Below, piece after piece: positions 10,762 to 28,500 of a stretch of 64,000 nt of DNA (position 1 is its first letter; every line of letters starts with the position of its first letter). The translations under genes were made by a program, and so were the position numbers. Location of the stretch: contig OY969695.1 of NCBI GenBank assembly GCA_963701965.1, positions 1,280,001 to 1,344,000 of the forward strand. The letters run 5' to 3'. Below the pieces are notes generated by a model. The model had not been told where the DNA came from and did not search any database. It saw only the letters and a program-made list of their open reading frames with translations. Source of the stretch: an uncultured Gemmatimonadales bacterium. GTDB taxonomy: Bacteria > Gemmatimonadota > Gemmatimonadetes > Gemmatimonadales > Gemmatimonadaceae.

Positions 10762-12303
10762 CTAATGCACGTAGTGGGCCATCAACATCGGCGGAGGGCG
10801 GTAGGCCACATGTCCCCGGGTGTCGTACGGGACATCATATGGCGCATCGCCGCGCGGCCAGTCTAATGCCTTGCCGGCGAGATCGGGCCGCGGATGCGAC
10901 AGCATGTACGCGGCGAGATCGAACGCGTCCTGATCGGTGAGCGTGCCGGGACGATCGTACGGCATCGCGCGCCGGATGAATGAGGCCGCGCGTCCTTCGC
11001 GCGCCATCGACGCGCCGACACTGAATGACCGCGGCCCCCACAGCGGCGGCGCCATCGCCGTTCCTTCACCGACGGGACCATGACAGCGGCTGCACTGCGG
11101 GCCGTACAGCGTCGCGCCCCGCGTCGTATCGCCCGTGAGCGGCGAGAGCGTCGGGAGGCCGGAGCCTCGCACCTCGGCCCCGCGCGGGATGCCCGTCGAG
11201 AGAAACGCGAGATAGGCGATCATGTCGTGCATGTCGCGGCTCGAGTCCGCGAGCGGCTGACCCGCGAGGCTGCGCGTGAGGCAGAAGTTGATGCGCTCTT
11301 CGATCGATGCCACCGCGCCCTTGCGCTCGATGAAGCGCGGATAGCGCGCGTAGGTGCCGATGAGCATCGCCCCGCCCGCCCGCCGCCCGCCGTCGATGTG
11401 GCAGCTGAGACATCGCAAGGCATTCGCGGCATTGGCGGGAAGACTGTCGTGCGTGTGCGCGATCAACGCCAGCCCGCGCCGGATAGACGCGCCGGCGCTA
11501 TCGTGCGGGATCGTCGAGTCGGACGGCACGACGGATGGTTCGATGGCGACGGCCGGTTTCGGTGCCCGCGTCTTGAAAAACATGAACGCGCCGACGGCGA
11601 GGAGCAGCACGGCGAAACCGCGTTTGAGGCGCGCTGGGGAGATCAGGGCGCAGAGTTGCGTGCCGATCAGGATGCCGATGACCGCCACTCCCGTAAAGAG
11701 GCCGACCGTCGGCCAGGACATTGGGACGTGGCCCAGGTAGCCGACGAGACCCGCCGCGGAGTTCGCGGCGATCACCAAGAGCGACGTGCCGATGGCGAGC
11801 GGCATCGGCACGTTTCCGAACAACACCAACGCCGGGACAATCAGGAATCCGCCGCCCACTCCGACGAGTCCGGTGAGGACGCCGACGCCGGCGCCGACCG
11901 GCGCCAGGCGTAACGGGTGCGGCGCCCGGGTTGCCGCCACCTCCGGGCGGGACGCGTTCCGGAACATTGAGACTGCGGCCACGCAAATGACCAGCGCCAA
12001 CAACGAGAGTTGGACCGGACCGGAGAGCCGCGTCCCCAGACGCGCGCCGACGTACGCCAGCGGGATGGCCGTGACGCCGAAAATGGCGGCCATCCGGAAA
12101 TCCATGCGGCCCGCGCGCCAGTGACCGATGGCGCCGACCAGGCTGACCGTGCCGACGACGACGAGGCTCATCGCGATCGCTTGCTTGGCCTCGAACCCCA
12201 AGACGTACACGAAGATCGGCACGGTCAGGACCGAGCCGCCACCACCCAGGAGCCCCAGCGAAAGACCGACGGCCAGCGCCAGCGCGAGTCCGAGAACCGT
12301 CAC
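10762..12303 (-). CDS. TauE/SafE (TSUP) transporter fused to a TsdA-like diheme c-type cytochrome
   Basis: N-terminal GLLGGGGSVLTVP and GLVGVGGGFLIVPAL repeats. C-terminal CLSCH, EERINFCLTRS, CSRCH, PPLWG, FIRRAMP. Confidence 0.88.
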   Translation of the reverse strand: MTVLGLALALAVGLSLGLLGGGGSVLTVPIFVYVLGFEAKQAIAMSLVVVGTVSLVGAIGHWRAGRMDFRMAAIFGVTAIPLAYVGARLGTRLSGPVQLSLLALVICVAAVSMFRNASRPEVAATRAPHPLRLAPVGAGVGVLTGLVGVGGGFLIVPALVLFGNVPMPLAIGTSLLVIAANSAAGLVGYLGHVPMSWPTVGLFTGVAVIGILIGTQLCALISPARLKRGFAVLLLAVGAFMFFKTRAPKPAVAIEPSVVPSDSTIPHDSAGASIRRGLALIAHTHDSLPANAANALRCLSCHIDGGRRAGGAMLIGTYARYPRFIERKGAVASIEERINFCLTRSLAGQPLADSSRDMHDMIAYLAFLSTGIPRGAEVRGSGLPTLSPLTGDTTRGATLYGPQCSRCHGPVGEGTAMAPPLWGPRSFSVGASMAREGRAASFIRRAMPYDRPGTLTDQDAFDLAAYMLSHPRPDLAGKALDWPRGDAPYDVPYDTRGHVAYRPPPMLMAHYVH

Positions 12304-12319
12304 GCCGGCTGGTACCCGA

Positions 12320-12964
12320 CTACGCGGCGTAGCAGTACGTACAGCCCTTTTCTTGCGCGCGGTTCACGGCCAGCACCCCGATGGGCACCAGGTTCATTCC
12401 CGGCAACAGCGCTTCCGTCCACTCCTGCTTCGCGGCGGCCGCGGTGGTGCCGGCGGCGGGCGCGAATCGCTCGCTGATCTTGGTCAAGGCGACATTGCAC
12501 ACCGTGAAGATGACGCCACGGTTGACCAGCGTGGGAATGTCACTGCCGGGGGCCGGCACGCCGTCGGCGTGAATGAACGGGTTCCGCGTCGCGGGCGCCT
12601 TGGTGGCGGGGTCGTTGACCTTGAAGGCTTCGCCGATCTTGTACTTGCTCCACATTGCGTCGCTGAGTGCCATCGGCATCGCGAAGTGGCGGAAGCCGAC
12701 CACGGCGCTGAGGTCCTTGTCCGTGAGGCCGTAGGCTTCGTGATTCAGATTGAGAAAACCGGCGGCGAATGCCAGACCGAAACCGTCGTTCGTCGAGACG
12801 GCATCGAAGAACTGCTTGTGCTTGCCCGTGATCTTGTCGAGCCAGGCATCGCTCCAAGGTGCGCGGGCGCCGTTCGGCTCTGCCAAGGCTGCGGCGAACG
12901 GCATGGCGAGCGCGGCGGCGCCCACCGATATGCTTTCCAGAAACGCGCGGCGATCAGACTGCAT
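12320..12964 (-). CDS. Tat-exported DsrE-like protein
   Basis: DRRAFL Tat motif; GVIFTVCNVAL and VPIGVLAVNRAQEKGCTYCY resemble the DsrE/F-like fold. Confidence 0.7.
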   Translation of the reverse strand: MQSDRRAFLESISVGAAALAMPFAAALAEPNGARAPWSDAWLDKITGKHKQFFDAVSTNDGFGLAFAAGFLNLNHEAYGLTDKDLSAVVGFRHFAMPMALSDAMWSKYKIGEAFKVNDPATKAPATRNPFIHADGVPAPGSDIPTLVNRGVIFTVCNVALTKISERFAPAAGTTAAAAKQEWTEALLPGMNLVPIGVLAVNRAQEKGCTYCYAA

Positions 12965-19979: not shown

Positions 19980-20669
19980 ATGGTACGCTACTTCGCGGCA
20001 ACCCTGGTCACTCTGGCGGCGTTCGCCGGCATGCGTGTAGCCGGCCACGGCGCCACGGTCAAACTTCCGGAGCCGGCGGTCGACGCGCCGCTGGCTCAAC
20101 GGTCTGGGCAGGAGCACGCGGTGCTGTCAGGCGGCTGCTTCTGGGGCGTGCAAGCAGTCTTCGAGCACGTCAAAGGCGTCACGCGCGTGACGTCCGGGTA
20201 TGCGGGCGGCAAGGCGGACCTCGCGATCTATCAGGTGGTCAGTACCGGGTTGACGGGCCACGCCGAGTCGGTCCAGGTCGACTACGACCCGTCGGTCATC
20301 TCGTACGGTCAGCTGCTCAAGGTGTACTTCTCAGTGGCGCACGACCCGACCGAGCTCAACCGCCAGGGGCCGGACGAGGGGACGCAATATCGGTCCGCGA
20401 TCTGGTACGCGACGCCCGATCAGCAACGGATCGCCAAGGCCTATGTCAAGCAGTTGGAGCAGGCGAAGGTCTTTGACAAGCGGATCGTCACCCAGATCAA
20501 TCCGCTCCAGGGGTTCTATCCGGCCGAGGACTATCACCAGGATTACTTCGTCCACCACCCGGACTACCCGTACATCATCGTCAACGACCGGCCCAAGGTC
20601 GAGCACTTAAAGGACGAATGGCCGGCGATGTACAAGAACTACCCGGACGCAGGGTCCGCGGCGCAGTAG
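19980..20669 (+). CDS. msrA: Peptide-methionine (S)-S-oxide reductase, exported, single Cys
   Basis: GGCFWG, TGHAESV, HDPT, QYRSAI, FYPAEDYHQDY; N-terminal signal. Confidence 0.94.
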   Translation: MVRYFAATLVTLAAFAGMRVAGHGATVKLPEPAVDAPLAQRSGQEHAVLSGGCFWGVQAVFEHVKGVTRVTSGYAGGKADLAIYQVVSTGLTGHAESVQVDYDPSVISYGQLLKVYFSVAHDPTELNRQGPDEGTQYRSAIWYATPDQQRIAKAYVKQLEQAKVFDKRIVTQINPLQGFYPAEDYHQDYFVHHPDYPYIIVNDRPKVEHLKDEWPAMYKNYPDAGSAAQ

Positions 20670-22435: not shown

Positions 22436-23698
22436 TCACCGCCGCGTCAAGAGTCCGACTATCAGCCGCTCGATGTCCCCGGCGGTGCTGGCCACACCGA
22501 ACGACGCCCGGAGGGCCCCGGTCGCCCCATCGCCCTGGAACGCGCGCTCGCCCGCGCCGGGGTTGCAGAAGCATCCACCGCGTACGGCGACGTGCCAGGG
22601 GCGGAGGGCGCACTCCACGCGGTCGAACGCGACAACGTCCCCGTCGGGGTCGAGGATATTGAATGCCACGACCCCACCCCGATCGGGGGCCGGTCCGGGG
22701 CCGTAGACGCGGACCATGGGCGCCCCGCCCGGATGCCGGGCGTCGGCGAGCGCGTCGAGCAGAAGCCCCGTGAGGCAGGCGACGCGCCGTTGCAAGCGGT
22801 CGACGCCCACCTCCCGCACGAACTCCAGTCCGTGCTCCACCGCCGCCAGGGCCAGAAAATCCGGCGTGCCGTCCTCGAAGGCCTCGGCGCCGGCCTTGAG
22901 GCGGTAATCCGGCGTGGCGACCCGCACGTACTCGACGGTGCCGCCGGCGAACCACGGGCGCTCGAGCCGTTCCAGCGCGTCGGTCCGCGCGATCAACGCC
23001 CCCACGCCCGTGGGATAGCCCAGGACCTTGTACAGCGATACGACCACAAACTCCGGCATGAGCTCCCGGAGACGGAGCGGGTTCGTCGGGACATAAGCGG
23101 CCGCATCCAGCAACACGTCGTATCCCCGCTCCCGCGCCGCGCCAATCCACGCGGTGGGGTGCCGGACCCCTGAGAAGTTGGACTGGGCCGGGAACGCGAA
23201 CAGTCCCCGACCCTGCGCCACGGGGGCGAGGTCGGCGGGCGTGGCCGCCAGACGGAGCTCCGCATCGAGCGGGAGATAGTGGACGGGCGCGCCGCCGCGT
23301 TGGGCGAACCGGCGCATGCCATTCACGGAATTGTGGTTGTCGGCCGACAACACCAACGGCGCCTCCGGACCGAACGGGTAACTCTCGCCGATGATCCGGA
23401 TGGCCGCGCTGGCGTTGGCGGTAAAGATCACCGTGTAGTCGGCGGGGTCGGCATCGAGCCACCGCAGCACACTGGCGCGCGCACCCGCAATGACGTCGGC
23501 GCTGGCCCGCGACGCCGCGTGATCGGAGTGCGGATTCCCATGGATCGTGCCCAGCAGGCGGTCGGCGTGGGCGCTCACCCGCGATGCGGGAAAGAGCGCG
23601 GCGCCCGTGTAGTCCAGATACGCGCCCTCCTCGACATCGAGGCGGGCGAACTCGCGCCGACGGAGCGCCGCGAAGTACGGGTCGTCGGGCGTCAACAT
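22436..23698 (-). CDS. Class V PLP cysteine desulfurase resembling the NifS-like domain of molybdenum cofactor sulfurase (MOCOS/ABA3/HxB); no MOSC domain
   Basis: [66 protein letters not shown]. Confidence 0.85.
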
Positions 23699-24159
23699 CC
23701 CCGTCGCCAGGAGCGCGTACGGGTCATCGTGGTGTCGGCGCTCAGCCACTCGTCTATGCCGCCGCGCAGCGAATACACGCGCGGGAGACCGGACGCGCGG
23801 AGCAAGAACCAACCTTGGGCCGCGTGCGCGCCGCCCGCCGAATACAGCACGATCGTTTCGGTGGGCCGGAACCCGGCCGTGCGCAGTTGAGACAACGTCA
23901 TGTGCTCGGCGCGCGGAATGTGGCCCACGCGGTAGTCGCTGTCCGACCGGACGTCGATGACCCGGAGATCGGTTCGCCGATCCCGGATCCACGCCGCCAA
24001 CTCCGGCGCCGTCACGTGATCCTCCTCGTGGTCCACGATGCGCGCCAAGGCGTCGAGGTCGACCGCGGTCGTCGCGGGCGGCGCCGGGCTCCGCACGACG
24101 GCGGCGAGCCCCCCGAGCGCGAGCGCGAGTCCGAGGAGCGCGCGATTGACTCGGCTCAC
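23692..24159 (-). CDS. Membrane-anchored/exported single rhodanese domain with Ser at the usual catalytic position and C-terminal RRGC
   Basis: VIDVRS...[22 protein letters not shown], ends WRRGC*; GTGA overlap with the upstream gene. Confidence 0.82.
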
Positions 24160-24680
24160 CGGCGCTCGATCCGACTGGCGACGAAGAAGGCCGCCAGGCC
24201 AAGCACGACGACCAGCGCGACGACGGTCCCGTACGGCAGATGCGTCAGGCCCGGAAGCGTTTCGGGACCTCGCGGCATCGCCTCGTAGAGCGGACGCAGC
24301 GCGGCGAATGACTCGTGAAAGGCGAATACGCCGGCACAAAGGCCCGCCATGACCGCGACCCCATCGATCCGGCCGGTGGCGGCGGCCACGCAGGACGTCC
24401 CCGGACAGAGGCCGGCCGTCGCGAATCCGATCCCGAAGATCGCGCCGCCGATCGCTTGCGCGAGGACGAACGTCTCGGGCACGAAGACCCGGGAGATGTC
24501 CAGGAGTCCCAAGCGTCCGAGCCAGAAGAGGCCCAGCATCGCCGTGACGATCGCGCTGAACATGAGGCGGAGCACCGTGAAATCCGTGGCCGTGAACTGC
24601 CCCGCGAGCTTGGGCGCGTTGGACATGCCGCCGCGCTCCAGCAGGAATCCAAATCCCATCCCGAGCAGCAGCGGCGTCAC
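24156..24680 (-). CDS. YeeE/YedE sulfur transporter family protein (half 2)
   Basis: GFGFLLERGG, GGAIFGIGFATAGLCPGTSC; GTG 24680 overlaps the upstream stop. Confidence 0.87.
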   Translation of the reverse strand: MTPLLLGMGFGFLLERGGMSNAPKLAGQFTATDFTVLRLMFSAIVTAMLGLFWLGRLGLLDISRVFVPETFVLAQAIGGAIFGIGFATAGLCPGTSCVAAATGRIDGVAVMAGLCAGVFAFHESFAALRPLYEAMPRGPETLPGLTHLPYGTVVALVVVLGLAAFFVASRIERR

Positions 24681-25183
24681 GACCAGAGCCGCCGGCAGAG
24701 GGGCAACATCGCGTATCCCGCGGCGAACGCACAGGCGATGAAGAGCCAACTCCCGACGCTCAACACGGCGCCTCCGCTCAGACCGAGGCCGCTGGTACAC
24801 CCGCGGGCCAGCTTGGCGCCCACCCCCATCGCCGCGCCGGCCGCCATCGCGGTGAGCAACCGCGTCGCCCGACCCGTGCGCGGCCCGCGCTCGAGACCCA
24901 CGCGCAGGCGGCCGGCCAACACCGCGGAGAGGAGGCCGCCGGCGGCGATTCCGATCACCTCGACCACGAGCCAGTCGTCGAGCGGGCGACCGGTATAGCC
25001 GTCATAGGAAGGGTTGGCCGACACGTGGCCCGGCGCCGCCGCGGCGACCGCCGCGGTGACGGCGCTGGAATACGCGCCCGAGGCCCCCAGGCCGCGGCCC
25101 GTGAGCGCGAAGCTCGCGATCAGCACGAGGCCGATCCCCGTACCGGCCAGGTACGCGCTGAGATAGGGCCGCGCCACGACCAC
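24677..25183 (-). CDS. YeeE/YedE sulfur transporter family protein (half 1)
   Basis: PYLSAYLAGTGIG, GRGLGASGAY, GAKLARGCTSGLGLSGGA. Start GTG 25183 or 25177. Confidence 0.87.
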   Translation of the reverse strand: MVVARPYLSAYLAGTGIGLVLIASFALTGRGLGASGAYSSAVTAAVAAAAPGHVSANPSYDGYTGRPLDDWLVVEVIGIAAGGLLSAVLAGRLRVGLERGPRTGRATRLLTAMAAGAAMGVGAKLARGCTSGLGLSGGAVLSVGSWLFIACAFAAGYAMLPLCRRLWS

Positions 25184-26080
25184 TATCGCCCCGCGGGGTT
25201 GTCGACTGGCAGATCGCGACGCCGTGACCAGTCCTCGAACGACCCGTCGTACAGGCGCACAGGATAGCCAACCAGGTTGGCGGCGAACAGCATCGCCGTG
25301 GCCTGCATCCCAATGTGACAATACCCGACGATCGTGTCGCCGGGCTGCGCGCCGGCGGCGGCGAACAATGCCCGCAGCTCGGCCGGACTCTTGACCTTCG
25401 TATGCGCGTCGAAGATCGACGAGAACGGAATGTTCCGCGCGGTGGGAATGTGGCCGTAGCGGGACTCGCCTTGCTCGACGCCATCATAGAACGAACGGTC
25501 GCGGGCGTCGACGATGACGACACCCGGCTGGTTGAGATGCGCGCGCACCCAAGTGTGATCGACCACCAGCGCCGGCACGGGGGTCGCGGTGATCGTGCCG
25601 CGGGCCACGGTCGGAACCACCGCCGTCACCGGGCGCCGCTCGCCCTGCCATGCGGCCAGGCCACCGTCGAGCAGCAATGCCCGGGCCCCGAGACCGGCGA
25701 CCCGCAGCGTGAAGATCACGCGCGTCGTCGCGGAGATGTTCTCACCCGCCGCGTACACGACAATCCGCGACCCGTCGGAGATACCCAAACCTTCCAGGCG
25801 CTCGCGCAGCACGTTGGGAGGCAGCATCTCCAACATGAGCGGCGACGAGTCGCTCATCGCGCCGTCGGGCATGTTTGTGTTGGCCGAAATCCGGCCGAGG
25901 TCAACCCACCGCGCGCCGGGGATGTGCCCCTTGGCGTAAACGTCGGCGGGACCATTGTGGAGAATGACGAGCGTGGGATCGTTCAGAATGGTCGGCGAGC
26001 CAGGCCGTGGTGACCGTGCCTTGGGCCGGCAGCGGCGCGGCGGCGATGATGCCCAGAAGGGCAAGCAGGGATGAGCGCAT
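25183..26080 (-). CDS. Exported tandem-rhodanese sulfurtransferase (SseA/YnjE-like), frameshifted near 25988
   Basis: Signal MRSSLLALLGIIAAAPLPA, then TVTTAWLADH; continues in another frame with LNDPTLVILH, GHIPGA, LLDGG, DAR, GHIPTA, YCHIGMQA, LYDGSFEDW. Confidence 0.85.
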
Positions 26081-26134
26081 GGCCACACGATACGCGCCAT
26101 CGACGCTCCGGTGGTGATGGAAGATTTCGGAGTG

Positions 26135-26151
26135 TGTGGCGGAAGTGTGAT
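26135..26151 (-). promoter_or_regulatory. Putative OmpR-family tandem direct-repeat box upstream of the sulfurtransferase operon
   Basis: + strand TGTGGCGGAAGTGTGAT (TGTG at 11-bp period); 12/17 identical to 28484-28500. Confidence 0.45.
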
Positions 26152-26819
26152 CAGCTGGCGAACCGATACCCGATCGTCCAGACCGTCACGATGTGCCGCG
26201 GCTTCGCGGGATCCTCCTCCAGCTTGCGCCGGAGCTCGGCGACATGGGAGTCGACGGTGCGGGACAGCACCTGCTCGTCGTATCCCCAGACTTCCCGCAA
26301 CAACTCGGCGCGCGACGCCACGGCGCCCCCGCGCCGCACCAACGCCAGGAGGAGCGTGTACGCTTTCGGCGAGAGCGCGCAGGGTCGGGCGTCGCGGGTC
26401 ACGGTGCGCCGCACCGTGTCGATCTCCACGGCGCCGAAGCGGACCGTGTGGTCCTCCCCGCTCCGGCGCAGCAGCGACCGCACGCGCTCGATGAGCTCGA
26501 GCACGCCGAACGGCTTGGTCACATACTGGTCCGCATCGAGACGAAACCCGCGGACTTTGTCTGCTTCCTCGGCGCGCGCCGACAGGATGATGACGGGGAT
26601 GGCCACGCGCTTGGCGCGCAACTGCTGCAACACCTCGTACCCATCCATGAGTGGCAACATGAGATCGAGAATGACGAGATCGGCCGGCCACTCGGTCGCG
26701 GCCTTGAGACCGGCCGGCCCGTCGCCCGCGATGCGCACGTCATAGCCCTCGAACCGCAGGTTCTCGGCGATCCCGTCGGCGAGATCGGCGTTGTCTTCGA
26801 CGACCAGGACGCGCGCCAT
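26151..26819 (-). CDS. OmpR/PhoB-family response regulator
   Basis: VLVVEDN, LDLMLP, DQYVTKPF, SRTVDSHVAELRRKLE, TVWTIGYRF. Confidence 0.95.
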   Translation of the reverse strand: MARVLVVEDNADLADGIAENLRFEGYDVRIAGDGPAGLKAATEWPADLVILDLMLPLMDGYEVLQQLRAKRVAIPVIILSARAEEADKVRGFRLDADQYVTKPFGVLELIERVRSLLRRSGEDHTVRFGAVEIDTVRRTVTRDARPCALSPKAYTLLLALVRRGGAVASRAELLREVWGYDEQVLSRTVDSHVAELRRKLEEDPAKPRHIVTVWTIGYRFAS

Positions 26820-28439
26820 TCAGCCGACCGCCGGGAGCTCGACGATGAATATCGCGCCGCCGCTCTGGCCGCCTTCCACCAGCGCGCGTCCCCCGTGTTG
26901 CTCGGCGATCTCGCGCACGATCGTGAGTCCCATGCCGCTGCCGCCCACGCCATGCCGCACGGCGCCGGCGCCGCGCCGGAACGGCTGCCAGATCAGCTCG
27001 CGTTCGGCCGCGGGCACGCCCGGCCCCTCGTCGCTGACCGAGACGCGAATCGTCGCGCCATTGGACACACCCACGCGAATGGTTTGACTCGGCGGTCCGT
27101 ACTTGACGGCGTTGTCCAGCAGGTTGAGCACGAGCTGGCGCAACGCGTCGCGATCGAGCATGGCGATGGGTTGGGCCGCGATATCGGTGGCGATGGTCGC
27201 GCGGCGCCCGGCCGCCAGCGGACGGAATTCGTCGACGATCCGGACCGTCTCGGCCGCCACGTCCGTCGCGTGCCGCGCCGACCCAGCCTCCGTCCGCCCC
27301 CGCCGCGAGAATCGCAAAACGTTCTCGGCCAGGAATGCCAGCCGCCGCGCCTCGCGGTCCACGCGATCGAACGCCGCCAGACGTTGGGCGTCGCTGGCGT
27401 ATCGCCCGAGGCGGATGGTGTCGAGATCCAGCCGCATTTGCGCCAGAGGCGTGCGCAACTCGTGCGAGACGTTGGCGACGAAATCGGCCCGCAGCTGTCC
27501 CAACTCCCCTTCCCGGCGAATCTGGGCCACGGCGACCACCGCGAGCGCGGCGGCGACCGTGATGAGCGAGAGGAGCAACGGCAGATGGGAGCGCGGCAGG
27601 CCGCCGATCACGAGCTGACTCGCGATCTCGGGCTTGATCCCCGCCCAGACCGCGATGCCCCCGTAACTGGCAGGCATCCGCGCCGCCGCGGCGATCGCCG
27701 GCCGCGTGCCTGGTTCCGACGCGAACAATACCGCGTCGCTCGCGTCCCGGATCTGCGCGTGCAGCAGCTCGCGGTTGGCATGCCGCCGCGTGAAAGTCGA
27801 CGGGAGGAGGTCGGACGCGTCGAGCACGCCCCCGACGAAGGCCGCCAGCGTCTCCGGCCGATACTCGGCGCCATAGACGATCGTGTCGCCCCACACCGTC
27901 GGCATCAGCACATAGGAAAAATCGCGCGCCTGACCGTCATGACGCGCGATGATGTACGTGAATCCCCAGTCCGACTGGTACTCGCTGTGCACTTGGCGGC
28001 GGATCGTGTCGGTGAGCCACGCGCGGTCGGCCCGGAGATAGTCGCCGGTGGCCTGGTTGTAGGGCGCGACCGCCACCGTGTCGGCCGCGATGTTGAACCC
28101 GAAGAACGCGATCGGGTCCGGTCCGCTTCGCAACCGATGGCAGAGACACGCCTGGTCATACGGCAGGTACCGTACGAGGTCCGACACATCGGGAATCTGC
28201 GGATTCACGTGCCGCACCGCTCCGTGATACACGGGGCCCAGCGCTTCCTGCGCCGCCGCCGCCATCGCCTCGCGCAGGTGCTGGCGATAACTCCAGGCGG
28301 CGAAATTCGCATAATCGCCCAACGCCCTGGATGCCACCCGCTGCTGCGACCGCACGGCCGCCAGCGCGTCGATGACGGCAACGGCGGCCAGCCCGGAGCT
28401 GACCAGGAGCAGGGCGAGCGGCCAGCGGGAATGTCGCAC
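26820..28439 (-). CDS. Membrane sensor histidine kinase
   Basis: Two TMs around a large periplasmic domain; VSHELRTPL, NLLDNAVKY, DEGPGV, GSGMGL. Confidence 0.93.
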   Translation of the reverse strand: MRHSRWPLALLLVSSGLAAVAVIDALAAVRSQQRVASRALGDYANFAAWSYRQHLREAMAAAAQEALGPVYHGAVRHVNPQIPDVSDLVRYLPYDQACLCHRLRSGPDPIAFFGFNIAADTVAVAPYNQATGDYLRADRAWLTDTIRRQVHSEYQSDWGFTYIIARHDGQARDFSYVLMPTVWGDTIVYGAEYRPETLAAFVGGVLDASDLLPSTFTRRHANRELLHAQIRDASDAVLFASEPGTRPAIAAAARMPASYGGIAVWAGIKPEIASQLVIGGLPRSHLPLLLSLITVAAALAVVAVAQIRREGELGQLRADFVANVSHELRTPLAQMRLDLDTIRLGRYASDAQRLAAFDRVDREARRLAFLAENVLRFSRRGRTEAGSARHATDVAAETVRIVDEFRPLAAGRRATIATDIAAQPIAMLDRDALRQLVLNLLDNAVKYGPPSQTIRVGVSNGATIRVSVSDEGPGVPAAERELIWQPFRRGAGAVRHGVGGSGMGLTIVREIAEQHGGRALVEGGQSGGAIFIVELPAVG

Positions 28440-28483: not shown

Positions 28484-28500
28484 TGTGAAGAAAGTGTGGA
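28484..28500 (-). promoter_or_regulatory. Putative OmpR-family tandem direct-repeat box upstream of the HK-RR operon
   Basis: + strand TGTGAAGAAAGTGTGGA, 11-bp period. Confidence 0.45.

Follow-up and report, generated by a model that had tools for sequence, protein, structure and literature searches.

The DNA examined here, called the window, is a 64,000-nucleotide stretch from an uncultured Gemmatimonadales bacterium (GenBank assembly GCA_963701965.1, contig OY969695.1, positions 1,280,001 to 1,344,000) that carries a seven-gene cluster on its minus strand. The genes encode, in order, a sensor histidine kinase (HK), an OmpR-family response regulator (RR), a tandem-rhodanese sulfurtransferase (TST), two half-length YeeE proteins (YeeE1 and YeeE2), a rhodanese-like protein (Rhd) and an Aminotran_5-type pyridoxal phosphate (PLP) enzyme (Table 1). 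A previous annotation made without database searches, the sequence-only reading, had described five genes with overlapping stop and start codons downstream of an HK-RR pair, and the coordinates agree, with overlaps of 1, 4, 4 and 7 nt at the four junctions from TST to the PLP enzyme; a gap of 70 nt separates RR from TST. The motifs it had picked out (YCHIGMQ, RGCTSG, LCPGTSC and the terminal cysteine of RRGC) were all located. The source genome (G000; other G-numbers and the L-numbers denote compared genomes and loci) is 95% complete, and close homologs assign it to the Gemmatimonadota. A scan for sigma-70 promoters and terminators gave matches at chance level only, and a plasmid search returned no match.

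Table 1 Features of the cluster, with positions counted from the first nucleotide of the window.
Feature	Position	Strand	Basis
CACA-N7-CAC direct-repeat box upstream of HK, putative RR site (autoregulation)	28485..28498	-	pattern scan
Sensor histidine kinase (HK)	26820..28439	-	extracytoplasmic domain outside Pfam families
OmpR-family response regulator (RR)	26151..26819	-	PF00072 + PF00486
CACA-N7-CAC box upstream of TST, putative RR site	26136..26149	-	positional conservation
Tandem-rhodanese sulfurtransferase (TST), predicted exported, frameshift near 25988 in this assembly	25183..26080	-	PF00581 twice
YeeE1, C-terminal-half YeeE (PmpA-like)	24677..25183	-	PF04143 positions 176-308
YeeE2, N-terminal-half YeeE (PmpB-like)	24156..24680	-	PF04143 positions 10-152
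Rhd, membrane-anchored pseudo-rhodanese with a basic tail ending in Cys, putative sulfur carrier of the periplasm	23692..24159	-	alignment, structure model
Stand-alone MOCOS/ABA3-type NifS-like PLP enzyme, predicted cysteine desulfurase	22436..23698	-	PF00266, MOCOS similarity

The cluster is kept in many soil and sediment bacteria. A YeeE1 search of 60 relatives gave 10 matches, and five of the matching relatives carry RR, TST, YeeE1, YeeE2, Rhd and the PLP enzyme (hereafter MOCOS-like, after the eukaryotic molybdenum cofactor sulfurase) in the same order; HK is visible in four of these and is cut off by a contig end in the fifth. When 400 genomes of the phylum were searched with an Rhd alignment, about 22 gave strong matches. 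Twenty Rhd-matching genomes were examined, and in 14 the cluster was headed by TST (TST-type), in four it followed PsrABC (Psr-type), in one the YeeE1-YeeE2-Rhd trio stood alone and in one the locus was truncated. The series TST-YeeE1-YeeE2-Rhd is present in 19 other Gemmatimonadota genomes from four families; the MOCOS-like gene adjoins the cluster in 15 of the 19 and the HK-RR pair lies beside it in 14, with two genes inserted between them in one case. A MOCOS-like gene turned up in none of five Psr-type genomes and in five of 48 comparison genomes that had been picked for want of a strong Rhd match. Metagenomes yielded 599 confirmed loci, and among the best 80 of these, typed by manual reading, 38 showed the Psr-type arrangement also seen in the five genomes and 25 were TST-type. 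Seventeen of these TST-type loci, several of them near-duplicates, have visible flanks, with a MOCOS-like gene in 14, cysteine synthase A in one and neither in two. The gene-neighborhood search proposed in the sequence-only reading thus found the cluster conserved, in 19 other genomes and in metagenome loci. One metagenome-locus protein is on record from Telluria sp., with a related cluster there, and the Rhd of the intact locus L014 is identical to a recorded protein of Roseisolibacter agri, which we take to be a cultured species. A single-protein scan of genome contigs added one locus, L023, which holds a YeeE pair only and lies in a genome with weak Rhd matches.

The two YeeE proteins match PF04143 at 67.9 and 56.6 bits against a cut-off of 27, and together they correspond to one YeeE protein split in two, as first described. 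YeeE1 (168 aa) is the C-terminal half, with the GCTSG cysteine at the position of TsuA C293; YeeE2 (174 aa) is the N-terminal half, with the first cysteine of CPGTxC at the position of TsuA C91 and an extra C-terminal hydrophobic segment. In TsuA, C293 lies towards the periplasm and C22 and C91 are on the cytoplasmic side (PMC7449682), and the halves and cysteine positions of PmpAB have been described likewise (PMC11582611). No C22 equivalent was found in the pair by alignment to TsuA. The second YeeE2 cysteine, five residues past the C91 position, is present in 42/42 TST-type sequences versus 14/36 of the Psr type. In a tree of 76 pairs, from which short rows were dropped and whose root is unresolved, a single clade with support 0.925 holds 35 of the 39 TST-type pairs.

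Two described systems have related channels. TsuA/TsuB (YeeE/YeeD; PDB 6LEO, 8J4C) has a homologous channel, a chain of cysteines and a partner that adds a "fourth cysteine" (PMC7449682, PMC11073785), but TsuA is a single chain of 330-350 aa bearing C22, C91 and C293, whereas the channel here is made by two genes and lacks C22. Against the TsuA model NF052577 the halves score 36 and 30 bits, with a cut-off of 400. The adjacent YeeD/TusA of TsuA/TsuB is missing from the cluster, most host genomes have no counterpart either, and the extra carrier cysteine of the cluster is predicted to be periplasmic. PmpAB of Serratia and YedE1E2 of Cupriavidus pinatubonensis come closer, with two adjacent genes, the C-terminal half first, cysteines at the C293 and C91 positions and no C22 (PMC11582611, PMC10812762). 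As described there, however, their halves are about 130 aa long with four helices and one conserved cysteine each, whereas those of the cluster are about 170 aa and include the extra YeeE2 helix and cysteine; their partners are a persulfide dioxygenase (PDO) and ArsR instead of TST, Rhd and a desulfurase. YeeE also occurs in YTD clusters (PMC13490349, PMC13047784). By anatomy, the cluster is a predicted YeeE-type cysteine relay that is not TsuAB, not PmpAB as defined and not MOCOS proper.

Rhd was originally described as an anchored rhodanese ending in cysteine. The tail cysteine is well supported, but the protein is a pseudo-rhodanese with serine in place of the catalytic cysteine, and a sulfurtransferase role for it is unsupported. 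Its catalytic position reads YSAGG and its only cysteine is the last residue. Serine holds the catalytic position in 120/120 homologs and a loop cysteine occurs in 0/75 aligned locus domains, while the terminal cysteine is found in 117/120 homologs, the other three of which look truncated, and as the last or third-last residue in 70/70 complete Rhd genes from the loci. In the structure model an N-terminal helix precedes a rhodanese fold, and the tail has low confidence. In several genomes Rhd is fused behind YeeE2 via an extra hydrophobic helix; basic residues precede this extra helix, which suggests that the domain faces outward.

TST contains PF00581 twice, with its catalytic cysteine in the second rhodanese domain and invariant in 24/24 sequences. 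The active loop is CHIGMQ in the window and fits CH[IV]Gxx in 41/42 sequences. Basic residues such as those in the solved loops CRIAER, CRIGER and CRKGVT are absent from it, which argues against thiosulfate as the preferred donor. TST also falls below the NCBIfam cut-off for SseA/3-mercaptopyruvate sulfurtransferase (100 versus 250 bits), an enzyme whose loop is CGSGVT where that of TST is CHIGxQ. Related TSTs start with a hydrophobic leader in 20 of 23 cases (by our own gene calls). The tandem domains and the YCHIGMQ loop of the "signal-peptide tandem rhodanese" were thus recovered, but its signal peptide is not in frame here: the open reading frame that encodes it (ATG at 26080, MRSSLL...) stops after 59 codons and is out of frame with the rhodanese body, owing to one extra base near 25988 (WLADH / LNDP). 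A second tandem rhodanese, also frameshifted, lies at G000:C1 2675786-2677939, near genes that by reading resemble SoxZ and C1-pathway genes.

The MOCOS-like enzyme is a protein of 420 aa with PF00266 only and neither a MOSC domain nor a signal peptide. It scores about 240 bits against eukaryotic MOCOS versus about 80 against SufS/CsdA structures, which bears out the MOCOS-like identity first proposed. It shares 33% identity with plant MOCOS over 464 columns, together with the PLP lysine and RxGCFCNPG, but MOCOS/ABA3 has C-terminal MOSC domains that the cluster enzyme lacks. Because both the PLP lysine motif and the RxGCFCNPG cysteine motif are kept in 120/120 homologs, the enzyme is predicted to retain its chemistry and to act as a cysteine desulfurase; characterized enzymes of its class are established sulfur donors (PMC9516567). 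Sulfuration of the molybdenum cofactor was considered as its main role and set aside, since it has no MOSC domain, the two MOSC genes of G000 are located elsewhere and a search of G000 for XdhC found none. Other desulfurase-family genes are already present in G000. In L015 the cluster contains a SufS-like enzyme, which represents a different desulfurase subfamily, and in L156 one is next to YeeE1. MOCOS-type domains also occur in the proteins P0249, P0263, P0265 and P0246, fused to a flavin adenine dinucleotide oxidoreductase, to PF04273-type domains, to thioredoxin, or to LmbE and cyclic nucleotide-binding (cNMP) domains.

Two-component control, proposed at the outset, is probable and would act through a candidate RR box that tracks HK-RR linkage. 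Of the 15 HK-RR-linked loci, 11 have a CACA-N7-CAC repeat, with the 11-bp spacing that is typical of OmpR/PhoB sites, no more than 200 nt from the start of TST, and 14 have a looser form; the pattern was chosen after the linked intergenic regions had been viewed. The independent tests are the loci that lack the pair, where the box precedes TST in 0/11, and the regions upstream of HK, where it occurs in 5/13. The background frequency in G000 is 28 of 2093 genes. In L054 the box stands before both TST and HK although RR has moved away. The support is positional, as the box is not enriched across the window (5 found versus 6.55 expected). The extracytoplasmic domain of HK matched no family in Pfam and has invariant residues H54, E65, H72, H77, C98 and C100 (11/11). 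Its CxC motif was considered as a cluster-specific persulfide sensor and rejected, since an unlinked paralog has CxC too.

TusA, the usual partner of YeeE, was stated to be absent from the operon, and none is present in the cluster; no match over the cut-off was found in any of 15 genomes carrying the MOCOS-type cluster. TusA is rare in the whole set anyway (6/75 genomes). The sole TusA match of G000 lies within a compositionally foreign stretch, at about G000:C1 1-330000 and outside the window, which has deviant tetranucleotide composition, genes that look betaproteobacterial by reading and one cysK/M match as well; the single contig of G000 is probably chimeric. The link drawn earlier to a nearby TsdA operon was not upheld. 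A TsdA-like gene is carried by 34 of 37 genomes of the family whether or not the cluster is present, and by 13/19 TST-type genomes, and it lies near the cluster in this genus only. At 10762-12964 (-) of the window, a single reading frame joins a TauE domain to a TsdA-like dihaem cytochrome c; the fusion lies behind a twin-arginine protein with CTYCYAA at its C terminus. G001 and G003 have the same order and a long open frame, and in L058, L061 and L067 the cluster has a paralog of the twin-arginine protein nearby.

A persulfide relay was the core of the sequence-only reading. Its cysteine anatomy and conserved unit stood; the small rhodanese as a sulfurtransferase and the link to TsdA did not. 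We tentatively favor, as a possible reading, an outward relay fuelled by cysteine that would run from the cytoplasm to the periplasm. The MOCOS-type enzyme would strip sulfur from L-cysteine to form an enzyme persulfide, the YeeE2/YeeE1 pair would accept the sulfur on the cytoplasmic side, through its CPGTxC cysteines, for transfer to the outward GCTSG cysteine, and Rhd would take it onto its tail cysteine. Exported TST would then hand it to an acceptor in the periplasm, for which oxidized thiols or a thiophilic stressor such as cyanide, sulfite or a soft metal are the most plausible candidates, and RR would bind the 11-bp repeat before TST and before HK. An outward direction is favored because the usual cytoplasmic partner is an intact enzyme of the sulfur-donor type, because a second desulfurase subfamily turns up in L015 and L156, and because TST looks ill-suited to thiosulfate. 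Also counted in its favor were the occurrence of the MOCOS-like gene in TST-type and not Psr-type genomes, the missing TusA, the second YeeE2 cysteine, the Rhd tail cysteine and the box. The more specific proposal of a YeeE-family exporter, in which the desulfurase charges the split YeeE from inside and a tethered cysteine arm serves a periplasmic sulfurtransferase, is also possible but is advanced with greater reserve.

Several observations weigh against an outward relay. The YeeE-family channels tested in the literature covered are all importers: YedE1E2 of Cupriavidus took up zero-valent sulfur and showed no export (PMC10812762), and TsuA and SoxT also import. Four of the 19 TST-type genomes gave no MOCOS-like gene with this query, Rhd is missing in L143 and L168, G292 has TST and the MOCOS-like gene without YeeE, and cysteine synthase A, which consumes sulfide, takes the downstream slot in L198. 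In this assembly TST is broken, the related genomes in the counts are not independent, and the topology was derived from hydropathy, charge and alignment to TsuA without a signal-peptide predictor.

Some of these points fit a different arrangement, in which TST and the cysteine tail capture sulfur from outside polysulfide, zero-valent sulfur or thiosulfate, YeeE1/2 import it and the desulfurase works independently, so that two supplies for stress protection would be co-regulated and not in series. Import of zero-valent sulfur by YedE1E2 raises persulfide and lowers reactive oxygen species (PMC10812762). The desulfurase is optional, to judge from the four genomes that lack it, and it stays with TST where YeeE is absent in G292. 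Two lineages have an msrA gene with a hydrophobic leader no more than about 2 kb from the end of the cluster (window 19980-20669 (+); L068 15679-16362 (-)). This arrangement leaves unexplained both why translation of the desulfurase is so tightly coupled to that of Rhd and why the desulfurase is absent from all Psr-type clusters seen, and no persulfide dioxygenase or other cytoplasmic sink was recognized in the cluster; it is judged somewhat unlikely.

A further alternative concerns this genome only: the frameshift in TST could be real and the window copy a decaying remnant, dead in this organism. The break does take the signal peptide out of frame, and a first test found no frameshift in 49 G000 genes. 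That test, however, overlooked the TST break itself, and a second one, taken for this reason as more sensitive, found four of 94 G000 orthologs split over two frames, plus two further breaks. Relatives read through the position of the break in a single open frame, which together with the other split orthologs makes an assembly error likely, and the other six cluster genes are intact with GC3 (G+C at third codon positions) of 0.86-0.90. Decay is accordingly considered unlikely.

Assimilatory import is less probable still. Here periplasmic TST would split thiosulfate and the sulfane atom would be imported for cysteine synthesis, a TusA-free equivalent of TsuAB in bacteria without sulfate reduction. 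A search of G000, with the completeness given above, for the phosphoadenosine phosphosulfate (PAPS)-reductase family gave no match, CysK is present in L198, and CysH matches of full CysH length, by manual reading of match spans, occur in 2/27 cluster genomes versus 10/48 others (6/27 versus 19/48 for any match over the cut-off). Yet most of the phylum lacks the sulfate-reduction pathway anyway (PMC10581226), CysH-like genes occur in two MOCOS-cluster genomes (G316 and G284), the usual partner is a cysteine-degrading enzyme and the TST loop has no basic residues. Selenium handling, with selenite or selenocysteine turned over by a Sec-lyase-like enzyme, a YedE channel and an ExtH-like rhodanese, is very improbable: YedE relatives move selenium (PMC11582611), selD is present in G000 and weak matches below the cut-off were seen to ExtH, FdhT and SclA models, but four of 15 MOCOS-cluster genomes, including one that is 100% complete, gave no selD, and all 70 complete Rhd tails encode cysteine.

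The core of the cluster is not new. A phsABC-pmpA/B-sulfurtransferase cluster, including a fused form, was noted in Ca. Electryonea clarkiae, Ca. Lernaella stagnicola and Caldithrix abyssi, and the accessible part of that account gives no function and makes no mention of a cysteine tail (PMC9324843). Compared by description, it likewise has two YeeE halves of one domain each, with a sulfurtransferase-like gene behind them or joined to them. It differs in having Psr/PhsABC directly upstream, where the cluster in the window has the exported tandem rhodanese and, further upstream, HK-RR; the cluster here also has a MOCOS-type desulfurase at its downstream end, and its YeeE pair falls in a separate clade. 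HK-RR takes the place of an ArsR found in loci L016, L072 and L073. The claim of an undescribed system therefore holds for part of the cluster: the literature covered, with few subscription papers and no supplements, contained no account of a version with exported TST, a MOSC-less MOCOS-type enzyme, HK-RR and the extra YeeE cysteine and without TusA. The rhodaneses YnjE of E. coli and Sud of Wolinella both have signal peptides and, unlike Rhd, keep the active-site cysteine; YnjE is loaded by IscS, and Sud is a polysulfide carrier for Psr. We know of no dedicated operon of split YeeE and desulfurase for either, and to our knowledge the loading of periplasmic rhodaneses with sulfur is an unsettled question. 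The cluster ties a predicted cytoplasmic sulfur donor, a YeeE-type channel and an exported sulfurtransferase together, which makes the questions of direction and rhodanese loading testable with four or five proteins. It also places MOSC-less bacterial MOCOS-like enzymes in a context, and it offers a candidate operator together with a sensor domain that belongs to no known family. If the exporter reading is correct, the cluster would be a signal-controlled supply line of reactive sulfur for the cell envelope, analogous to DsbD for electrons; periplasmic Psr-type reductases would be fed by the same chassis, and there would be a role for the stand-alone MOCOS-like enzymes of bacteria.

Other neighbors of the cluster vary among the loci. 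A downstream methyl-accepting chemotaxis protein (MCP) was rejected as a cluster member: in G001 and G003 it is about 5 kb distant, and elsewhere it is not close to the cluster. In two genera, copper genes (copZ, copA, copC/D and csoR) adjoin the cluster or lie within about 5 kb of it (L064 13767-18479, L065, L063 18887-19898 and L214 10621-13553), a weak hint of a metal-related role. Metagenome loci L158 (6041-7977) and L206 (5730-7615) carry an upstream LytS/LytTR pair in place of HK-RR. In L021 (3872-7883) and L022, another split-YeeE subfamily lies right behind TsdA-like, sulfite-oxidase-like and cytochrome c genes.

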